A DNA stretch of 43,265 nt from Escherichia phage MarieHeimVoegtlin_Bas70. Numbering within the stretch: position 1 is the first letter of the stretch; each line of letters starts with the position of its first letter. Positions 3,374 through 43,265 of this stretch are shown one piece after another. The notes beneath the pieces are model-generated. The model did no database searches and was not told the DNA's origin. It saw only the letters and a program-made list of their open reading frames with translations. The stretch lies in the sequence record PQ850619.1, one strand, 5' to 3'. The translations under genes were made by a program, and so were the position numbers.

Positions 3374-4417
3374 ATGAGCTTACTTACATCCCTAATCAGC
3401 CATCAGATATGGCTGCAACGCACCGCATCCGGTGAGGTGAAAGACCTCACGCCGTTCATTCAGGAGATAAGGGATGAAATCAAACGGCAGGTGCTGTTAT
3501 TCGGTGACGACGGTCGCAGCACTGCGCGACTGAATAAACTGTTACGCGACCTGGAAGAAGCACTAACCGGTATTACGGGTGACTGGCAAACAAAGCTAAC
3601 AGACGACCTTAAGGAACTGGCGGCGTACGAGGCTGAGTGGAACGTAAAGACACTGACCGCCAACGTAGACGCGGAATTTGTTACGCCTACCGCTGAGCAG
3701 GTATGGGCCGCTGCCGAGTTTCAACCATTATCATTGAGCGACAAGCCCGTTGATTTCACCAAGCTGATGTCTGGATGGGGCGAAACGGAAGTAGCACGTC
3801 TTGTAACTGGAGTTAAGATGGGCTTTGTGCAAGGTCAAACCACACGGCAGATTGTTAAGAATGTTGTTGGCGCTGGTGGACTAGCCGACATCTCAGAACG
3901 TAACGCGACTACGGTAATCCGCACCGCGCTGTCCCACGTATCCAACGAGGCCCGTAACGAGACGTACCGCCAGAACGACGACATCATCGAGAAGTACGAG
4001 TGGGTGTCAACGCTTGACAGCCGCACCAGTACGATTTGCAGGGTCAGAGACGGGATGACGTGGGAAATTGGTAAGGGGCCGATGCCCCCAGCCCATCCGA
4101 ACTGCCGGTCGTGCACGGCTCCGGTAATCAGTTCCGAGTTCGACTTCCTCGATAAAGGCGCAAAACGCGCGGCTAAAGGCGCGGAAGGTGGCACTCAGGT
4201 AAGCGCAGACACCACTTACTACGAGTTCCTTAAACAACAACCGGCGTGGTTTCAGGACCAGGCGCTCGGCCCGGTGCGAGGTAAGATTTTCCGTAACAGC
4301 GGTATATCGCCGGAAGAGTTTCGCGTAATATCTGTAGATGGTTTCGGGAATCCGCTCACGCTTAAGCAGATGGCGGAACTCGATAAACGTGTTGCTGATT
4401 ATCTGAAAGGGGAATAA
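3374..4417 (+). CDS. head morphogenesis protein (Mu F-like / SPP1 gp7-like minor head protein)
   Basis: 347 aa ORF after the portal gene, the usual position of this family. ATG start. Confidence 0.65.
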   Translation: MSLLTSLISHQIWLQRTASGEVKDLTPFIQEIRDEIKRQVLLFGDDGRSTARLNKLLRDLEEALTGITGDWQTKLTDDLKELAAYEAEWNVKTLTANVDAEFVTPTAEQVWAAAEFQPLSLSDKPVDFTKLMSGWGETEVARLVTGVKMGFVQGQTTRQIVKNVVGAGGLADISERNATTVIRTALSHVSNEARNETYRQNDDIIEKYEWVSTLDSRTSTICRVRDGMTWEIGKGPMPPAHPNCRSCTAPVISSEFDFLDKGAKRAAKGAEGGTQVSADTTYYEFLKQQPAWFQDQALGPVRGKIFRNSGISPEEFRVISVDGFGNPLTLKQMAELDKRVADYLKGE

Positions 4418-4878
4418 TGATGGGCTTTTTCAAAGTAACTGACGTACCGTCTCGTCGCGTAGTCCAGTACGCCCGCGTGTCTGGCTCTGGCGAGAACGTG
4501 GTATTTATTGAGGACGAAAGTGTACTCGGTACACCGGTAGATGATATGCCGTTTGCAGATAAAACCGGTATTGCGTTGCCCGCCGCCGGTATGCTTTATG
4601 AAATTCCGTATCTGGCGGACGCTGGCGACGTGTATTTCTCTGCGCAACCGCAGGACGCTGAACTGGCGGGCGGCAGCGCAACCATCACTGTCGAGGTTAA
4701 GGCAGGCAAAGCGCCGTATTCTCTGACCTGGTACAAAGACGGTAAGGAAGTGGTGAATGCGCCTGAGGAGGCTCTGTCTCTGACGGTTAATGCGGTCGGC
4801 GAATACTTCGTTAAAGTTACTGATGCCGATGGAGTAGAGGCGGTAAGCAAAGCGGCGAAGGTTACTAAGCCAGAATGA
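4417..4878 (+). CDS. Ig-like domain protein (possible capsid decoration or accessory)
   Basis: 153 aa. C-terminal segment KAPYSLTWYKDGKEV...GEYFVKVTDADG matches the Ig-like strand pattern also seen in the 8189-8539 protein. TAATG overlap with the upstream gene. Confidence 0.5.
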   Translation: MMGFFKVTDVPSRRVVQYARVSGSGENVVFIEDESVLGTPVDDMPFADKTGIALPAAGMLYEIPYLADAGDVYFSAQPQDAELAGGSATITVEVKAGKAPYSLTWYKDGKEVVNAPEEALSLTVNAVGEYFVKVTDADGVEAVSKAAKVTKPE

Positions 4879-6064: not shown

Positions 6065-6769
6065 ATGAATCGTTTTTTACGTTATCCGTTCCAGGAAGAA
6101 GCTGGGGCAGAAGATAAAGCTGGTGGCGGTGACGCGCCGAAAATGTTCACCGCTGAAGAAGTTCAGGCGCTGATTGAGAAAGAAGTTGCCGGGCTTAAGG
6201 CTAATCAGGAAGCATTGTTGGCGGAGAAGAAAGAAGCCGCTCGCAAAGCAAAAGAGGCCGAAGAAGAACGGCAGCGCGCGCACCAGGAGGCGTTAAAAGC
6301 CGCTGGTAAGATGGACGAGTTCGAAAAGACGATTCGTAGCCAGTATGACCCGGTGTTAGCCGAGAAAGACGGTCGCATCTCCAGAATGGCAGAGCGTATC
6401 CTCGGCAGCGAACGTAAAGCGGTGCTAGGCTCTTTCGCGGGTGACTTTATTACCCCGGAAGCAGTGGACATTCTTGCGCCGTTCGTTAAGACTGAGTTCG
6501 AAGGCGATGATGTGGTTACTAAGTTTGTTGGTGCAGACGGTAACGTAATCACGACTGACCCGGAACAGTTCCGCAAATACCTGCGCGAACACAAGGCGTT
6601 TTCGCATTTGATTAAAGCAAATGCAGCTTCCGGCGGCGGGGCTTCCGGTAGCAAAGGCGGCGGGGCCGCACCAGCGTTTAAAGACATGAGTGAAGCGGAG
6701 CGTATCGCTCTGTACGAATCGAACCCTGCCGAATTTGAACGGCAACTTAAAGCCCTGAGGAAAAAATAA
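6065..6769 (+). CDS. scaffolding protein (putative)
   Basis: ATG at 6065 with AGGGGA Shine-Dalgarno; track ORF begins upstream at 6011. Charged A/E/K-rich helical sequence. Immediately precedes the capsid gene with an ATGA overlap. Confidence 0.5.
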   Translation: MNRFLRYPFQEEAGAEDKAGGGDAPKMFTAEEVQALIEKEVAGLKANQEALLAEKKEAARKAKEAEEERQRAHQEALKAAGKMDEFEKTIRSQYDPVLAEKDGRISRMAERILGSERKAVLGSFAGDFITPEAVDILAPFVKTEFEGDDVVTKFVGADGNVITTDPEQFRKYLREHKAFSHLIKANAASGGGASGSKGGGAAPAFKDMSEAERIALYESNPAEFERQLKALRKK

Positions 6770-7818
6770 TGGCAATTACTACTATCGGCGACATCGTAAC
6801 TGGTAAAGAATCGGTAATCCTGTCCTACATGACAGAGGACCCGGTAGAGAAAACCGCGTTCTTCCAGTCCGGTATCCTTACCTCGACTCCGTATGCCGCC
6901 GCTATCGCAAACGGCCCGTCCAACAAAGCGGTCCTGCCGTACTGGAAAGCTATTGATACCTCTATCGAGCCGAACTACTCGAACGACGTATATCAGGACG
7001 TCGCCACCCCGCGTAACGTGCAAACCGGTGAGATGGATGTTCGCGTAGCTTACCTGAACGAAGGTTTTGGTCAGGCTGACCTGACGGTAGAACTGACCAG
7101 CCAGAATCCGCTGCAATCCGTGGCTTCCCGTCTGGATAACTTCTGGCAGCGTCAGGCACAACGCCGTCTTATTGCTACCGCGCTCGGTCTGTACAATGAC
7201 AACGTAGCGGCTACCGATGCATACCACGAGCAGAATGACATGGTGATCGACGTTTCCGCTACTATGGGCTTCGACTCCGGTGCGTTCATCGACGCTACCC
7301 AGACTATGGGTGACGCGCTGATGGGTAACGGCGGTGAAGTGCTGGGGGCTATCGCGATGCACAGCTTCGTTTATGCGCAGGCTCGTAAGCAGCAGCTTAT
7401 CGACTTCATCCGTGATGCTGACAACAACACCATGTTCGCCACCTACCAGGGCTACCGTGTGATTGTTGACGACAGCATGACCGTAGTCGGTACTGGCGGC
7501 AGCCGTAAGTTCATCTCCATCATCTTCGGCAACGGCGCTATCGGTTACGGTGAAGGTTCTCCGTCAAACCCGCTGGAATACGAGCGCGAAGCGTCTCGCG
7601 GCAACGGCGGTGGCGTCGAAACCCTGTGGACCCGTAAGACCTGGTTGCTGCATCCGTTTGGTTACAGCTTCACCAGCGCAGTAATCACTGGCAACGGCAC
7701 CGAGACTATCGCCCGCTCTGCTTCATGGCAGGACCTGGCGAACGCTTCCAACTGGAACCGCGTTGTTGAGCGTAAGCATGTACCGATTGCCTTCCTGGTA
7801 ACTGGTGTCGGGGCTTAA
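6769..7818 (+). CDS. major capsid protein
   Basis: 349 aa ORF after the scaffold gene, followed by a strong hairpin terminator. Call rests on position and size. Confidence 0.65.
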   Translation: MAITTIGDIVTGKESVILSYMTEDPVEKTAFFQSGILTSTPYAAAIANGPSNKAVLPYWKAIDTSIEPNYSNDVYQDVATPRNVQTGEMDVRVAYLNEGFGQADLTVELTSQNPLQSVASRLDNFWQRQAQRRLIATALGLYNDNVAATDAYHEQNDMVIDVSATMGFDSGAFIDATQTMGDALMGNGGEVLGAIAMHSFVYAQARKQQLIDFIRDADNNTMFATYQGYRVIVDDSMTVVGTGGSRKFISIIFGNGAIGYGEGSPSNPLEYEREASRGNGGGVETLWTRKTWLLHPFGYSFTSAVITGNGTETIARSASWQDLANASNWNRVVERKHVPIAFLVTGVGA

Positions 7819-7834
7819 GGTTAAGATATAATCG

Positions 7835-7862
7835 AGAGGGACTTCGGTCCCTCTTTTCATTT
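7835..7862 (+). terminator. intrinsic terminator (UUCG-loop hairpin plus T-run)
   Basis: agagggac-ttcg-gtccctct followed by TTTCATTT, directly after the capsid gene. Confidence 0.6.
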
Positions 7863-7877
7863 ACTAAGAGGTAAATT

Positions 7878-8176
7878 ATGGCTAAGACCGGAAAAGGCTT
7901 GCCTCGCAGCCTTCAGAATGTCGACTTCGGCGACTTTGACATCCCAGTAACGCCGGCTACTACCAGCGTAGTTGGTGGGGTTAAAAAGTCAGCTACTGTA
8001 GCCGCCCCGCGGCCATTACCGCTGCCGCCGGGTCGCAGTCCGCTGCGGACCCGACTAAGACCGAGTTCGATGCCCTTGTAGCCGAGTACAACAAACTTCG
8101 AACTGATGCAACCGCGCTGCGCACTACCGTAGCAAATCTGTTGACTGCGCTTAAAAATGCAGGAACTGTAAGCTAA
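7878..8176 (+). CDS. hypothetical virion protein with apparent -1 frameshift
   Basis: ATG at 7878 with AAGAGGTAA Shine-Dalgarno opens frame 0, which stops at 8081 after a Pro/Arg-rich tail. Frame -1 is open from 7985 to 8176 with a coding-like sequence (AITAAAGSQSAADPTKTEFDALVAEYNKLRTDATALRTTVANLLTALKNAGTVS), has no usable start codon, and ends right before the next gene's Shine-Dalgarno. Candidate slip site TTAAAAAG at 7981-7988. Confidence 0.4.
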
Positions 8177-8188
8177 AGGAGCTTAAAA

Positions 8189-8539
8189 ATGGTTGATGTA
8201 ATCAAACGTCGTATTACTGGTGTTTCTGATGATTCTCCTGCCGATGGTCAGGTTGAAATCGATATGGCGAATATCTCGCCCGCATCTTTTTCTACCGCAC
8301 TTGCCGCTACCACTACCAAGTCTACGGGGCAGACGATGACTCTTACCGTAGCCGTAACTGGCGGTCTGGCCCCGTACACATACCAGTGGTACAAAGATAA
8401 CAACGCTATCCCAGGCGCTACCGCCGCCACCTACGAGAAAACTTCGCTCGCTACTACCGATTCCGGTACGTATAAAGTGGTTGTCCACGATGTATATGGT
8501 AATATTATCTCCAGCAGCACCGTAGCAACTGTATCTTAA
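8189..8539 (+). CDS. Ig-like domain protein
   Basis: 116 aa. Segment GGLAPYTYQWYKDNNAIPG...GTYKVVVHDVYGN parallels the Ig-like segment of the 4417-4878 protein. AAGGAG Shine-Dalgarno. Confidence 0.5.
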   Translation: MVDVIKRRITGVSDDSPADGQVEIDMANISPASFSTALAATTTKSTGQTMTLTVAVTGGLAPYTYQWYKDNNAIPGATAATYEKTSLATTDSGTYKVVVHDVYGNIISSSTVATVS

Positions 8540-8575
8540 TACCGCGGCCCTTCGGGGCCGTAATAAGGAAAGGTC

Positions 8576-8755
8576 ATGGCAGATAATTATGTAATCCGCG
8601 AAAAGTACACCCACGTTGATGTTGTTGACGGTCAGGTTATGCCCGTTCGCGGTGTTGTAGAAGCGGATGAACTGGTAGCGGTTCAACCGGACAACGAAGA
8701 AGCGCACAACAACGGCGGTGGCACTAAGCGTCGCCGCCGTAAGTCAGAGGAATAA
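8576..8755 (+). CDS. hypothetical small protein (59 aa)
   Basis: ATG with AAGGAAAGG Shine-Dalgarno. Basic C-terminus KRRRRK. Tightly packed between neighbouring genes. Below the ORF-track length cutoff. Confidence 0.4.
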   Translation: MADNYVIREKYTHVDVVDGQVMPVRGVVEADELVAVQPDNEEAHNNGGGTKRRRRKSEE

Positions 8756-22313: not shown

Positions 22314-24245
22314 ATGTCAAGCGGATGCGGTGACGTTTTAAGCCTGGCGGATTTACAAACCGCCAAGAAACACCAAATTTTTGAAGCCGAGGTTATCACC
22401 GGTAAAGCTGGCGGTGTAGCTACGGGTGCTGATATCGATTACGCGACAAATCAGGTTACAGGGCAGACTCAGAAGACGCTCCCGGCCGTGTTGCGTGACG
22501 CCGGGTTCAGACCTGCGCCATTCACATTCGAAACAGGTGGGACTTTGGGCGTTAACGACGCTGACCTGGCGGTGTTGTGGCCAGGGCCATCAGGCGACGG
22601 CAACTATTATGCATGGAAAGGTGCCCTGCCAAAAACCATCCCGGCATCTTCAACCCCGGCGTCTACGGGCGGAGTAGGCCAGACCGCATGGGTTGCCGTT
22701 AGTGAAGCTGCATTGCGCCGTGATTTGGCCCTAAGCACTGGCGCAGGGCTAGTCGGTACGTCTTCGGGTCGCACAGTGCAAGGCGAGGTTGACCATTTCA
22801 AAATAGGGTATATGACACCCGATGATTTCGGCGCGGTGGGTGATGGTGTTACCGACGACACCGCGCCTTTGCAACAGGCTATTGACTATTGCTCAAGCAA
22901 CGGTATCGCGTTAAGAATCCCCGCAAAATCTTATGTTTGGAATGGCGGTATTATAACTTCACCCGTAACAATAATCGGTGACAGACGTCCTGATTACAAT
23001 CTTAGCTCCAATTCTATGTCTAACGGGTCTGTTATAATTGGCAATTTAAGATTTTCCGCAAGCCAGGTGATTATTAAGTCACTTGGTGTGCGTAGGCCTA
23101 CAGGCTCCCCCGGAGATTGTCTGGTGTTATCGACCGATAACTATGCTGGTGGGTCTTGTATTGTTCAAGATGTAGTTGCCGCGGGCCTTTCCGGTTCGGA
23201 CACGTACCACAGCGTTCTTGTTGAAGGCTACGATTCCGCGCATGTATCTCAAATAACTGGCGGTTATAATCTTTTTGGCCTCGCGATTAAGTCAAGAAAC
23301 GTTGTTGCCAGAGGCGTAATAACCGTAAGCTGTGATACTGGCGTTATCATTAAATCTGATAGTGAGTTCAGCACGGCAAAAAATGTGGTGCTGGACGGGC
23401 ACATTAATGTCGGTAATGGTGTTTCTAGTCAAGGTGTTTGGATTTACAGCACAACCGCACAACTTGAGCGTATTACCTGCGCAAACTTACAAAGCATCGA
23501 TTCCGCTATACATATGCGGATTAAGTCCGAAAACGTAGCTAATGACGTGCAAATTGTTGGGGCAAATTATTCAGGATCTACTTATGCGGATGTGCTCGTC
23601 GAAGGCACTTCGGCTGGCACGTTGTACAATGTTAGTTTAGATAGTATAACCGCAGTAAATAGCCAGAAATTTATGGCTGCAGGTTTCTGTGAACAACTGA
23701 TGGTAACAGGATTCTATGGGTCCCTGAAACCTGGCGCTCCCGCCGATACTGCGTTTGAGGTTAGCGCCGCCGTAGGGCTTTTTAGCGGGTCAAATATCCA
23801 ACTAGTCCGTCAATACCGCCGTGACCTAATGACAATGAATCTCGGTAACAGTTATCTTAATAATAGATTATCATCTGTTAAGGCGAAAGTAATAGGAAAC
23901 GGCAAACCTAGGCCGGGGTATAAAGAACAGAATCTTAGCGGCGCTGCGGCTACAATGATTGTTGGCGACAGTTTGGGGCCCTCTGGGGTTGTGTCTGTCA
24001 CCGCGTTATCCACCGGCAGTTCATTCAGCAGTATTGCTATTAATGACGACTATGGTCAGCCGGTTAAGCCAGGTTTTCTTCTAATAATCCGAAACGCATC
24101 CACTATCCCGTTCGTTATGAACCATAATCCAGGGTCTGGTGGAATCGCAAATAACGGGGCGGTGGGTAAGACCATTATGGGCGGAGACACTATAATGTAC
24201 GTTTTTGACGGGGCGAATTGGCGTCAAACTCCATCTATAGCTTAA
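22314..24245 (+). CDS. tailspike / tail fiber with pectate-lyase-like beta-helix domain
   Basis: 643 aa. Motif GYMTPDDFGAVGDGVTDDTAPLQQAIDYC is typical of pectate-lyase-fold right-handed beta-helix enzymes. Last structural gene before a bidirectional terminator. Confidence 0.6.
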   Translation: MSSGCGDVLSLADLQTAKKHQIFEAEVITGKAGGVATGADIDYATNQVTGQTQKTLPAVLRDAGFRPAPFTFETGGTLGVNDADLAVLWPGPSGDGNYYAWKGALPKTIPASSTPASTGGVGQTAWVAVSEAALRRDLALSTGAGLVGTSSGRTVQGEVDHFKIGYMTPDDFGAVGDGVTDDTAPLQQAIDYCSSNGIALRIPAKSYVWNGGIITSPVTIIGDRRPDYNLSSNSMSNGSVIIGNLRFSASQVIIKSLGVRRPTGSPGDCLVLSTDNYAGGSCIVQDVVAAGLSGSDTYHSVLVEGYDSAHVSQITGGYNLFGLAIKSRNVVARGVITVSCDTGVIIKSDSEFSTAKNVVLDGHINVGNGVSSQGVWIYSTTAQLERITCANLQSIDSAIHMRIKSENVANDVQIVGANYSGSTYADVLVEGTSAGTLYNVSLDSITAVNSQKFMAAGFCEQLMVTGFYGSLKPGAPADTAFEVSAAVGLFSGSNIQLVRQYRRDLMTMNLGNSYLNNRLSSVKAKVIGNGKPRPGYKEQNLSGAAATMIVGDSLGPSGVVSVTALSTGSSFSSIAINDDYGQPVKPGFLLIIRNASTIPFVMNHNPGSGGIANNGAVGKTIMGGDTIMYVFDGANWRQTPSIA

Positions 24246-24249
24246 AACT

Positions 24250-24275
24250 AAGGCCCCGTTTGGGGCCTTTTCTCT
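24250..24275. terminator. bidirectional intrinsic terminator
   Basis: aggcccc-gttt-ggggcct hairpin with AAAACTA on the 5' side and TTTTCTCT on the 3' side. Sits at the boundary between + structural and - replication genes. Confidence 0.7.
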
Positions 24276-24276
24276 A

Positions 24277-24411
24277 CTCTTCTGATAACTTCTCCAGCAC
24301 AAACGCCAGTTGCGCATTAGCGGCGTCTCTTTGCTGCCGTAGTCGTAGAACCTCTTCTTCCAGTTCCTTGATACGTTTTTGCAATGCTGGAATAGGAGCT
24401 ATGATGTTCAT
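24277..24411 (-). CDS. hypothetical small coiled-coil protein (44 aa)
   Basis: ATGA overlap with the helicase stop. Heptad-like MNIIAPIPALQKRIKELEEEVLRLRQQRDAANAQLAFVLEKLSEE. Below the ORF-track cutoff, hand-translated. Confidence 0.3.
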
Positions 24412-25832: not shown

Positions 25833-26618
25833 TTACGGCCCCATGAACGCCTTTATAAATTCAGCGGCTACTTGCGGGACGATAGCATTGCCGTAACCGC
25901 GCAATCGTCCCACTCTGGCGGGTACCCCATTAGCCAGCGGGAATGTGCTGGGTTCAACTGGCCTGAATTTTCCATCCCGGCATCCGAGCCAGTCAGCATC
26001 TGACCAGAACCCGTTAGGCGGATTGGCTGTGTCAGAGATGCCTCTGTTTGCAGATTGTGGCCCCCGTTCCTGCCCTGATGGCCTGCTCCCGCCGAGTTGT
26101 TCGCACACGGTGTTGGCCAGTTGCTGCGCTCCGAAGAACAATCGATTCCTTTTGTGCGGTGCGCCGACGCTACAAGCTGGGAGTACGGCAAACCCGACGG
26201 CGTAGTCTTCTCTTTCCAGGTGAGTTTGTAAATCGCACATCCACGATTTTGCAATTGCTGCCGCAACCTGCTCCCCAAAGATGACTGGAGGGTGGCACTC
26301 GCTGATGAGGTCGAGGAGCACAGGTGCGAGGTGTCTCTGGTCGAACTGTCCGAGTTGCTTTCCTGCCGTGCTAAACGGTTGGCAAGGCGGACTTCCCGTC
26401 CATATAGGCGTATCTTCAGAAACTCCCGCAAGTCTGAGCGCGAGAGGCCAGCCGCCGATACCCGCGAAAAAATGACACTGGGTGAACCCGTCAAGGTCTT
26501 CTGGCTTAACTTCGGTAATGCTTCTTTCATCTACAACTCCAAAAGGTATGTGACCCTGTTTTATCAACTCACGCAGCCACGCGGCTGCGCCTTTATCCCA
26601 TTCATTGTAATAGTTCAT
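25833..26618 (-). CDS. DNA (cytosine-5)-methyltransferase
   Basis: 261 aa. Motif I FAGIGG, motif IV PPCQPFS (catalytic PC), motif VIII-like HKRNRLF, C-terminal GNAIVPQVA. Confidence 0.8.
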
Positions 26619-26806
26619 TTCGCCACCAGAACTAACTCTTTACGCCCGAACGCCGTAATATTGCCGGTTACATCTTCGATAACCAGTTTACCGTTCGACT
26701 CGACGAACACTGTATCAACGGCAACAGGACGACGGGTCTTAACGTTGAAAATCATGTCGCCTGGTACGATGTCACGTGCAGGTTTGCGGTCATATTCGTG
26801 TTTCAT
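26615..26806 (-). CDS. hypothetical protein (63 aa)
   Basis: ATG with AAGGAA Shine-Dalgarno. ATGA overlap with the methyltransferase gene. First gene downstream of the leftward promoter at 26840-26868. Confidence 0.5.
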   Translation of the reverse strand: MKHEYDRKPARDIVPGDMIFNVKTRRPVAVDTVFVESNGKLVIEDVTGNITAFGRKELVLVAK

Positions 26807-26836
26807 TTCTCAATTCCTTATATTGTTGGTGTAGGA

Positions 26837-27121
26837 CTAACTATAATAGTTCGCTATTAGGTCGTCAACCTGTTTGAACGAACCAACGACAAAAACATTT
26901 GCACCACGTTTACGCATCCGCTCGTGCTCTCGTATCTGGTGCGGGTCTGGCTTCGTGTTTTCGTCTTTCTTAACCTCGACGAACCAGACGATGCCGCCAG
27001 GGAGAATTACCAGCAGGTCGGGAGCGCCGGAACGCCCCTCGTAGGAAAGTTTACGAACGAGGCCCCCAAGGGCCTCAAATCGCTCTTTTGCGTATTTCTG
27101 GATGCGGCCCTCTTTAGTCAT
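26837..27121 (-). CDS. VRR-NUC domain nuclease (PD-(D/E)xK)
   Basis: Start taken at internal ATG 27121 (track ORF extends to 27301 from a TTG). Motifs GAPDLLV and VWFVEVKK fit the VRR-NUC D...E.K core. Confidence 0.55.
   Translation of the reverse strand: MTKEGRIQKYAKERFEALGGLVRKLSYEGRSGAPDLLVILPGGIVWFVEVKKDENTKPDPHQIREHERMRKRGANVFVVGSFKQVDDLIANYYS
26840..26868 (-). promoter_or_regulatory. sigma70-like promoter (TTGACG-N17-TATAGT) with AATAGTTCGCTATT palindrome in spacer
   Basis: Minus-strand reading gives TTGACG, 17-nt spacer, TATAGT. Same architecture as the promoters at 30401-30429 and 32950-32978. Confidence 0.55.
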
Positions 27122-43210: not shown

Positions 43211-43265
43211 GTACATCCCGCCCAATCCCCTTATATAATCCCTTTAGACGCGTAGGGCGCGTCTG

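Follow-up and report, generated by a model that had tools for sequence, protein, structure and literature searches.

A one-base deletion in a C-tract splits the head-fibre gene of Escherichia phage MarieHeimVoegtlin_Bas70

Directly downstream of its major capsid gene, Escherichia phage MarieHeimVoegtlin_Bas70 (Bas70) has a coding region that is spread over two overlapping reading frames. The initial annotation offered two explanations: programmed -1 frameshifting, which would make a virion protein of roughly 99 aa, or an indel, either a sequencing error or a real mutation. Which of these accounts for the locus is the question addressed here, using the 43,265-nt sequence PQ850619.1 (one strand; the window). 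Judged from its sequence, Bas70 is a Kagunavirus, a K1G-like siphovirus of E. coli. All features of the locus lie on the + strand.

Two reading frames where the relatives have one

Frame 0 is well initiated, as first annotated: the ATG at 7878 follows a Shine-Dalgarno motif, AAGAGG (7866–7871), with a 6-nt spacer. The ORF (7878–8081) has 67 codons and ends, as had been described, in a Pro/Arg-rich stretch (RPLPLPPGRSPLRTRLRPSSMPL) before the stop TAG at 8079–8081. A plausible N-terminal part of about 35 residues had been noted; the part is there, yet it is 44 residues long and extends through CCG at 8007–8009. These conserved codons 1–44 (7878–8009; tblastn q1–41, 97.6% identity) are followed by a 23-aa out-of-frame Pro/Arg tail (codons 45–67 and the TAG stop, 8010–8081). 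Frame -1 is open from 7985, after TAA at 7982–7984, to TAA at 8174–8176, and reading the sequence from 7985 onward gives no ATG, GTG or TTG until the TTG at 8141, in agreement with the original view of an open frame without a start. The ending was also correctly seen, since AGGAG, the ribosome-binding site for the gene with ATG 8189, comes directly after TAA 8174–8176. Family codons 45–99 and their TAA are stranded in this frame (8009–8176; tblastn q37–99), including an Ala/Pro-rich linker and a C-terminal heptad-repeat helix (encoded at about 8057–8158). A separate start for the frame -1 part can be ruled out, since its first possible start codon is at 8141 and it lacks a ribosome-binding site.

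The frame change sits at the CCCC tract (8005–8008) and not at the G/A runs (GGTGGGGTTAAAAAG), both of which are present in the overlap as listed earlier. Bas75, phiEc3 and K1G have CCCCC here and are otherwise nearly identical.

Both neighbouring genes are intact. Upstream lies the major capsid protein gene (6769–7818, 349 aa), whose product has the same sequence as the Bas75 major head protein (100% identity), and downstream a Hoc-like Ig-domain decoration gene (8189–8539, 116 aa; Pfam Ig_3, PHROG 4069), again with 100% identity to the Bas75 protein. The order major capsid gene, head-fibre gene, Hoc-like Ig gene and its coordinates match those of Bas75, phiEc3 and K1G. A consensus scan found a terminator-like GC hairpin followed by a T-run in the gap between the capsid and head-fibre genes (7834–7855; GAGAGGGAC-TTCG-GTCCCTCTT), and a terminator is annotated under the match in Snoke and Schulenburg. 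Such a hairpin would make the decoration genes less strongly expressed than the capsid gene.

Some further features were seen around the locus and beyond it. The head module carries two distinct Hoc-like Ig-domain decoration genes (4417–4878 and 8189–8539), with Ig domains that are ~40% identical. In K1G (L003) and in L107, L108, L126 and L131 there is a 249-aa insertion just 3' of a 59-aa gene (~8756 in Bas70), annotated in K1G as a mobE-like homing endonuclease and absent from Bas70. Bas70 and Bas75 are collinear across most of the length of Bas70. The Bas70 tailspike (22314–24400) resembles that of Bas75 over the N-terminal ~263 aa alone (67% identity) and differs in the receptor-binding part, so the host glycan specificity is probably different.

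Megablast of 6700–8600 matched 457 phage records, nearly all of them Guernseyvirinae (Kagunavirus, Jerseyvirus), with Escherichia phage AnnaReinhart_Bas75 (Bas75) as the top match (99.7%). The 1901-base query spans 1902 bases in most of the full-length matches among the top 30, all of the closest ones included, which gave a first hint of a 1-nt length difference. Bas75, phiEc3 and K1G each have one annotated 300-nt CDS at the same position ('virion structural protein' or hypothetical). A four-way alignment gives GCCG-CCCC-GCGG for Bas70 versus GCCG-CCCCC-GCGG for the other three, with no other length difference and 1–4 substitutions elsewhere in 332 columns. The lesion is thus a 1-nt deletion that leaves a C4 tract where relatives have C5. 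All 31 GenBank records that match 7950–8070 are one base longer than Bas70, and no cultured isolate among them carries C4.

The proteins of Bas75 and K1G read MAKTGK...SATVAAP|AAITAAAGSQ...LKNAGTVS, which is Bas70 frame 0 through P44 and then frame -1 from A45, and tblastn of the Bas75 protein divides exactly between these two frames. With C4 in place of C5, translation from ATG 7878 follows the family frame for 44 codons, then leaves it and terminates at 8081. Family members are single ORFs of about 84–123 codons, and in Bas70 the gene is instead split (7878–8081, and on to 8176) by the 1-nt deletion. In the relatives inspected, the intact product is an uninterrupted 99-aa head fibre or virion structural protein. 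The same holds in a sample of IMG/VR contigs, which were picked via the capsid protein and hence blind to the state of the head-fibre gene: 45 of 46 capsid-anchored loci with a recognisable gene were intact and single-frame, and the one exception was frameshifted elsewhere. Frameshifts at other positions of the gene were also seen in two GenBank records, KMB36 and the 'UNVERIFIED' GE_vB_M4. Comparison with orthologues, suggested at the outset, therefore settles on the indel: relatives have one uninterrupted, single-frame 300-nt CDS, and Bas70 is short of one C in the C5 run.

Selection points to the same frame. Measured in 8063–8173 against 11 homologues, pN/pS was 0.17 in frame -1, as compared with 1.3 in frame 0 and 2.4 in frame +1. 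Frame -1 is thus the one that truly codes, and the tail rich in Pro and Arg is not under selection; the two-frame pattern is far beyond chance. We consider it likely that the C5 to C4 deletion at 8005–8008 breaks the head-fibre gene, and that C4 is a genuine, recurrent loss-of-function allele or at most a leaky one.

The head-fibre family and its predicted architecture

When frame 0 and frame -1 are joined, the repaired 99-aa product matches PHROG 4366, 'head fibre protein', over profile positions 1–91 of 91 (E = 1.2e-41) and is 99% identical to the K1G protein. Pfam gave no significant match for this protein, and in the PDB no relative was found among what were only spurious Ala-rich matches to L7/L12. 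There was no match in complete genomes and plasmids of E. coli, and our literature search turned up no paper on the head fibre of Kagunavirus or on its frameshift.

The first ~24 aa (MAKTGKGLPRSLQNVDFGDFDI) are common to head-fibre variants of 84 to 123 aa with unrelated C-terminal parts. The family is modular, with this conserved start and unrelated C-terminal types of 84, 89/90, 96 and 123 aa (L020, L033–L035, L041, L045, L055, L056). The N-terminal ~24 aa are presumed to be the capsid anchor, and their conservation across the length variants fits such a role.

In an AlphaFold model of the intact homologue P0004, the one element predicted with confidence is a helix spanning residues 61–94 (block-mean pLDDT values of 90–97). 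Residues 25–55 have pLDDT below 50 and the N-terminal ~24 residues 54–62. In the alignment the helix shows a 3–4 hydrophobic spacing (F64, L67, Y71, L74, V78, L81, V85, L88, L92), which is typical of a coiled coil. The whole of this element is encoded downstream of the lesion, so that the C-terminal helical module is present in Bas70 but stranded in frame -1.

The C4 allele in natural populations

The exact 67-aa frame-0 product was found on at least 17 ENA/Logan metagenome contigs, a count that overstates the number of independent samples, as several of these contigs may re-assemble the same runs. The contigs include SPAdes NODE names (two, with stated coverage of 8x and 15x), MEGAHIT-style k111/k141 names and METAG scaffolds, with assembler and platform taken from the contig names. 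At least six local haplotypes carry C4, and the majority of them have C5 twins that are almost identical; the flanks of the C4 contigs differ by up to about 10%. The nearest neighbour is a C5 genome for Bas70 (34/3203 differences), for L009 (6/3241) and for L012 (1/3329; twin L102), which makes the C4 carriers polyphyletic. The haplotype table contains no SNP that is linked to C4 across haplotypes. One contig, L111, has C4 on a Bas75-like haplotype.

Both alleles occur in the HAYD20 cohort. Two samples gave contigs of 42,650 and 42,649 nt (L114, L116) that carry C4 and are mutually identical over 13 kb, and a 42,651-nt contig from a third sample (L130) has C5 and differs from the C4 pair by the C-run and one SNP in 19.9 kb. 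Since C4 and the linked SNP occur together in two samples, this is an inherited genotype and not noise. The same phage strain is thus found with and without the lesion in one cohort.

Sampling through the exact Hoc-like protein showed an intact 99-aa gene in 9 of the 10 places listed (three of them encoding the exact K1G protein) and C4 in one. C4 makes up about 1/17 of the places sampled through the neighbouring gene, and its 17 contigs compare with an upper scale of 114 index blocks. It is therefore a minority allele, at roughly 5–15%. The idea that the K1G-type allele exists in metagenomes as C4 only was ruled out, as L102, L108 and L109 encode the exact K1G protein. The C5 form P0118 was seen intact on 25 contigs. 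In L097, C4 is found in a second allele type, which otherwise has the C5 run, and in L098, a different allele, the same spot shows a C3 to C2 deletion.

The gene is disrupted in other ways as well. Metagenome contigs show A-run frameshifts, frameshifts of either sign elsewhere, a duplication and deletions that keep the frame. The A5 run (7983–7987), which lies 20 nt before the C-run, is intact in Bas70 and has become A6 in some metagenome relatives (P0096–P0098, L112). P0085, P0086 and P0100 are in-frame fusions in which the N-terminus of the head fibre runs on into the C-terminal half of the Hoc-like Ig protein encoded downstream; they could stem from a genuine deletion between Ala-rich regions or from chimeric assembly. 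As comparator for the frequency of disruptions we used a 119-aa neck protein, with the best 120 of 290 matches, below which shortened forms would rank. Some contigs are visibly noisy: L112 has two A-run insertions, L018 a split scaffold gene, and L097 and L099 a coverage of 0.5–1.1. Divergent frameshifts around the C-run (P0091, P0092, P0095) were dropped as a test of whether the stranded frame is conserved in the long term, being on short contigs or contigs of 0.5–1.1x.

The C4/C5 difference lies inside a near-identical module of about 700 bp (7769–8465; binned mismatch counts and haplotype table), which has 0–3 mismatches per 100 nt versus 7–25 per 100 in the flanks. The module extends from the capsid gene's 3' end through the head-fibre gene, takes in most of the Hoc-like gene, and looks like a cassette shared by recombination. 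A single C4 mutation spread by recombination within the module is not separable from recurrent mutation, but recurrent deletion is the simpler account because of the near-identical C4/C5 twins. The C-run, which lies in the loop of a perfect 5-bp GC hairpin (GCCGC-CCC-GCGGC, 8001–8013; centroid fold and sequence), seems to be a hotspot for deletions; the hairpin is a presumed context for replication slippage, which would be the mutational mechanism.

Such a run might also act as a contingency switch that toggles between C5 and C4 at a high rate and gives fibre-ON and fibre-OFF virions, with selection between them (e.g., gut versus culture). As at contingency loci, alleles differ by repeat length: L114/L116 and L130 are separated by the run and one SNP in 19.9 kb, L012 and L102 by 1/3329, and C4/C5 twins by 0–1 substitutions in 3–20 kb. 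The number of haplotypes with C4, its frequency in the places sampled through the neighbouring gene and the C4 form of the second C5-run allele (L097) would all fit a switch, as would a C5 run that varies elsewhere among near-identical genomes. This other run is intergenic, upstream of the small terminase gene, and is C4 at L117:1635 as compared with L114 and L130; Bas70 has CCCCTT there (43220–43235). The second case may mean that C5 runs are generally unstable, with a slippage-prone polymerase, or it may be an effect of data quality or platform. Against a switch, however, a run of 5 nt is short for classical phase variation, only the deletion direction is observed, with no C6 allele among 115 matches, the 25 contigs with the C5 allele P0118 have it intact, and recombination within the module could carry one C4 mutation across backbones without any hypermutation. 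We regard a switch of this kind as very unlikely. The broader proposal of a hypermutable ON/OFF switch for fibre display in wild Kagunavirus, in which fibre-less variants are repeatedly selected in vivo (e.g., in the infant gut) and -1 slippage at CC CCG|CGG possibly softens the outcome, seems to us quite unlikely; if true, it would place a contingency-type locus in a capsid decoration gene of a virulent phage.

An error in the Bas70 sequence has to be weighed too. The true phage would then be C5 with an intact 99-aa gene, one C having been lost in base-calling or consensus. A 1-nt homopolymer change is a classic type of error, the downstream frame is pristine, C4 occurs in no GenBank isolate, and some metagenome contigs do have homopolymer noise. 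The Bas70 assembly itself is not homopolymer-noisy, however, as all other genes conserved with Bas75 are intact and 20 other C5/G5 runs are present. Moreover, the identical allele is found in many independent short-read-style assemblies made with various assemblers, it co-segregates with a SNP across two samples of one cohort, and a random error would be improbable exactly on the site of a known natural variant. Of the two forms of indel considered originally, the real mutation is hence favoured by the many assemblies, the linked SNP and the intact state of the other conserved genes, and a sequencing error has little to commend it; we would be surprised to see it confirmed.

When all 81 Bas75 proteins were searched against Bas70 with tblastn, the head-fibre gene was the only conserved gene broken without a counterpart in relatives. 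A second frame split relative to Bas75, in the Holliday-junction resolvase / VRR-NUC gene (26775–27120, minus strand), proved to be natural variation: through a 1-nt difference near 26834 the gene ends ~20 codons before the Bas75 version, a length variant common to NTEC3, K1G and CM001. A C-run difference from Bas75 at 25839 was likewise rejected as a second lesion, as it lies where two genes meet, in a divergent stretch, and neither gene is disrupted. C5/G5 runs are strongly under-represented in Bas70, with 20 observed versus 60.8 ± 8.4 in dinucleotide-preserving shuffles (0/100 shuffles below 20).

Translation of the C4 allele and comparison with known systems

If C4 is real, some ribosomes might still slip by -1 on its mRNA at GCC GCC CCG|CGG and make the exact wild-type 99-aa protein in sub-stoichiometric amounts. 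The P-site tRNA-Pro would move from CCG to CCC with the A site waiting at the rare Arg codon CGG, and reading would resume with GCG. CGG is rarely used by E. coli, and ribosomes are known to slip leftward at hungry codons. The exact family sequence AAP|AAIT would be restored by a -1 slip on CCCC-G, frame -1 is stop-free from 7985 until its TAA, and C4 phages persist in nature. In a variant of this reading, a slip at U AAA AAG (7982–7988) would yield a 99-aa protein with 7 altered residues. The junction sequence of the trans-frame product is SATVAAPAAITAAAGSQ, and the peptides specific to the frame-0 and recoded products are SATVAAPRPLPLPPGR and SATVAAPAAITAAAGSQSAADPTK, respectively. Several observations speak against recoding, which we judge highly improbable: the relatives are single-frame, other contigs are frameshifted in both signs at several positions, which fits random inactivation and not a programmed site, and C4 genomes have near-identical C5 twins, which makes the C4 lineages young tips and not a maintained state. 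A low-level CCG to CCC slip in the P site would be incidental leakiness and not a programmed signal.

Programmed -1 frameshifting, the other explanation put forward initially, is not supported, as the layout is not conserved and both a heptamer and a stimulatory RNA fold are missing. The two-frame layout is absent from 31/31 GenBank matches, from 45/46 IMG/VR loci and from ~9/10 metagenome loci sampled via the neighbouring gene. The shift point, with the zero-frame sequence C CCG CGG, does not fit X XXY YYZ, and the upstream A-run, U AAA AAG, is a near-canonical slippery sequence only. No stimulatory RNA structure was found 5–9 nt downstream; 7995–8095 folds like its shuffles (z = -0.04), with the nearest sizeable hairpin beginning about 20 nt past the C-tract.

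The reading we prefer is loss of the head fibre through the deletion. An intact head fibre would bind the capsid by its N-terminal segment and continue through a flexible linker rich in Ala and Pro to a coiled-coil helix at the C-terminus. In Bas70 the ribosome would start at 7878, read 44 correct codons, find itself in the wrong frame at the C-tract and stop at 8081, and the 67-aa product would retain the anchor and lose both linker and helix. Bas70 virions would be expected to be without head fibres, or nearly so. By analogy with phi29 gp8.5 and T4 Hoc/Soc, and given the persistence of the allele, the head fibre is probably dispensable, which would allow a null allele to recur and persist in wild populations. 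The other disruptions (frameshifts, in-frame deletions, duplication, Ig fusions) fit a dispensable gene under relaxed or fluctuating constraint.

This is an ordinary homopolymer frameshift in a known gene; the recurrence of C4 is the one mildly interesting aspect. For annotation, the locus should be recorded as a frameshifted head-fibre gene, and neither as a 67-aa hypothetical protein plus a gap nor as programmed frameshifting. The data suggest that Kagunavirus can do without its head fibre in nature and that the gene is repeatedly inactivated at its C5 tract. Should loss of the fibre prove to be selected, it would offer a handle on the role of the widespread small head fibres.

Programmed -1 frameshifting as in the tail assembly chaperone G/GT, the T7 capsid 10A/10B and E. 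coli dnaX resembles the Bas70 locus in having two overlapping frames, in a virion-module gene, with an A-rich or homopolymer overlap. Those sites are conserved, have an X XXY YYZ heptamer and usually a stimulator, and both of their products are functional, whereas the Bas70 layout is that of a minority allele with its shift at CC CCG; a stimulator was looked for and not found, and the tail in frame 0 is not under selection. Homopolymer hotspots (Streisinger slippage, e.g., T4 rII) and bacterial contingency loci share with Bas70 a 1-nt change in a run that inactivates a gene and recurs on several backgrounds, but the Bas70 run has only 5 nt and has been observed to change by deletion alone.

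As a structure, the head fibre recalls phi29 gp8.5 (PF11133) and T4 Hoc/Soc, which are likewise small, presumed non-essential capsid decorations that bind the capsid through the N-terminal part and oligomerise through an extended helical part. Fibre-less phi29 is reportedly viable. Precomputed PF11133 matches are recorded for three shortened homologues of the head-fibre protein, although the 99-aa protein itself differs from gp8.5 in having no significant Pfam match or PDB relative and in being about a third of its length. The head fibre of the Guernseyvirinae (PHROG 4366; K1G gp10 YP_009168790, Bas75_0012 and the 'head fiber protein' of SETP3/SETP7) has the same locus, start, ribosome-binding site and stop as the Bas70 gene. 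At the DNA level the identity is about 99%, and the repaired protein matches the family over its full length; relative to these genes, the Bas70 copy has one C fewer in the C5 run and encodes 67 aa in place of 99.
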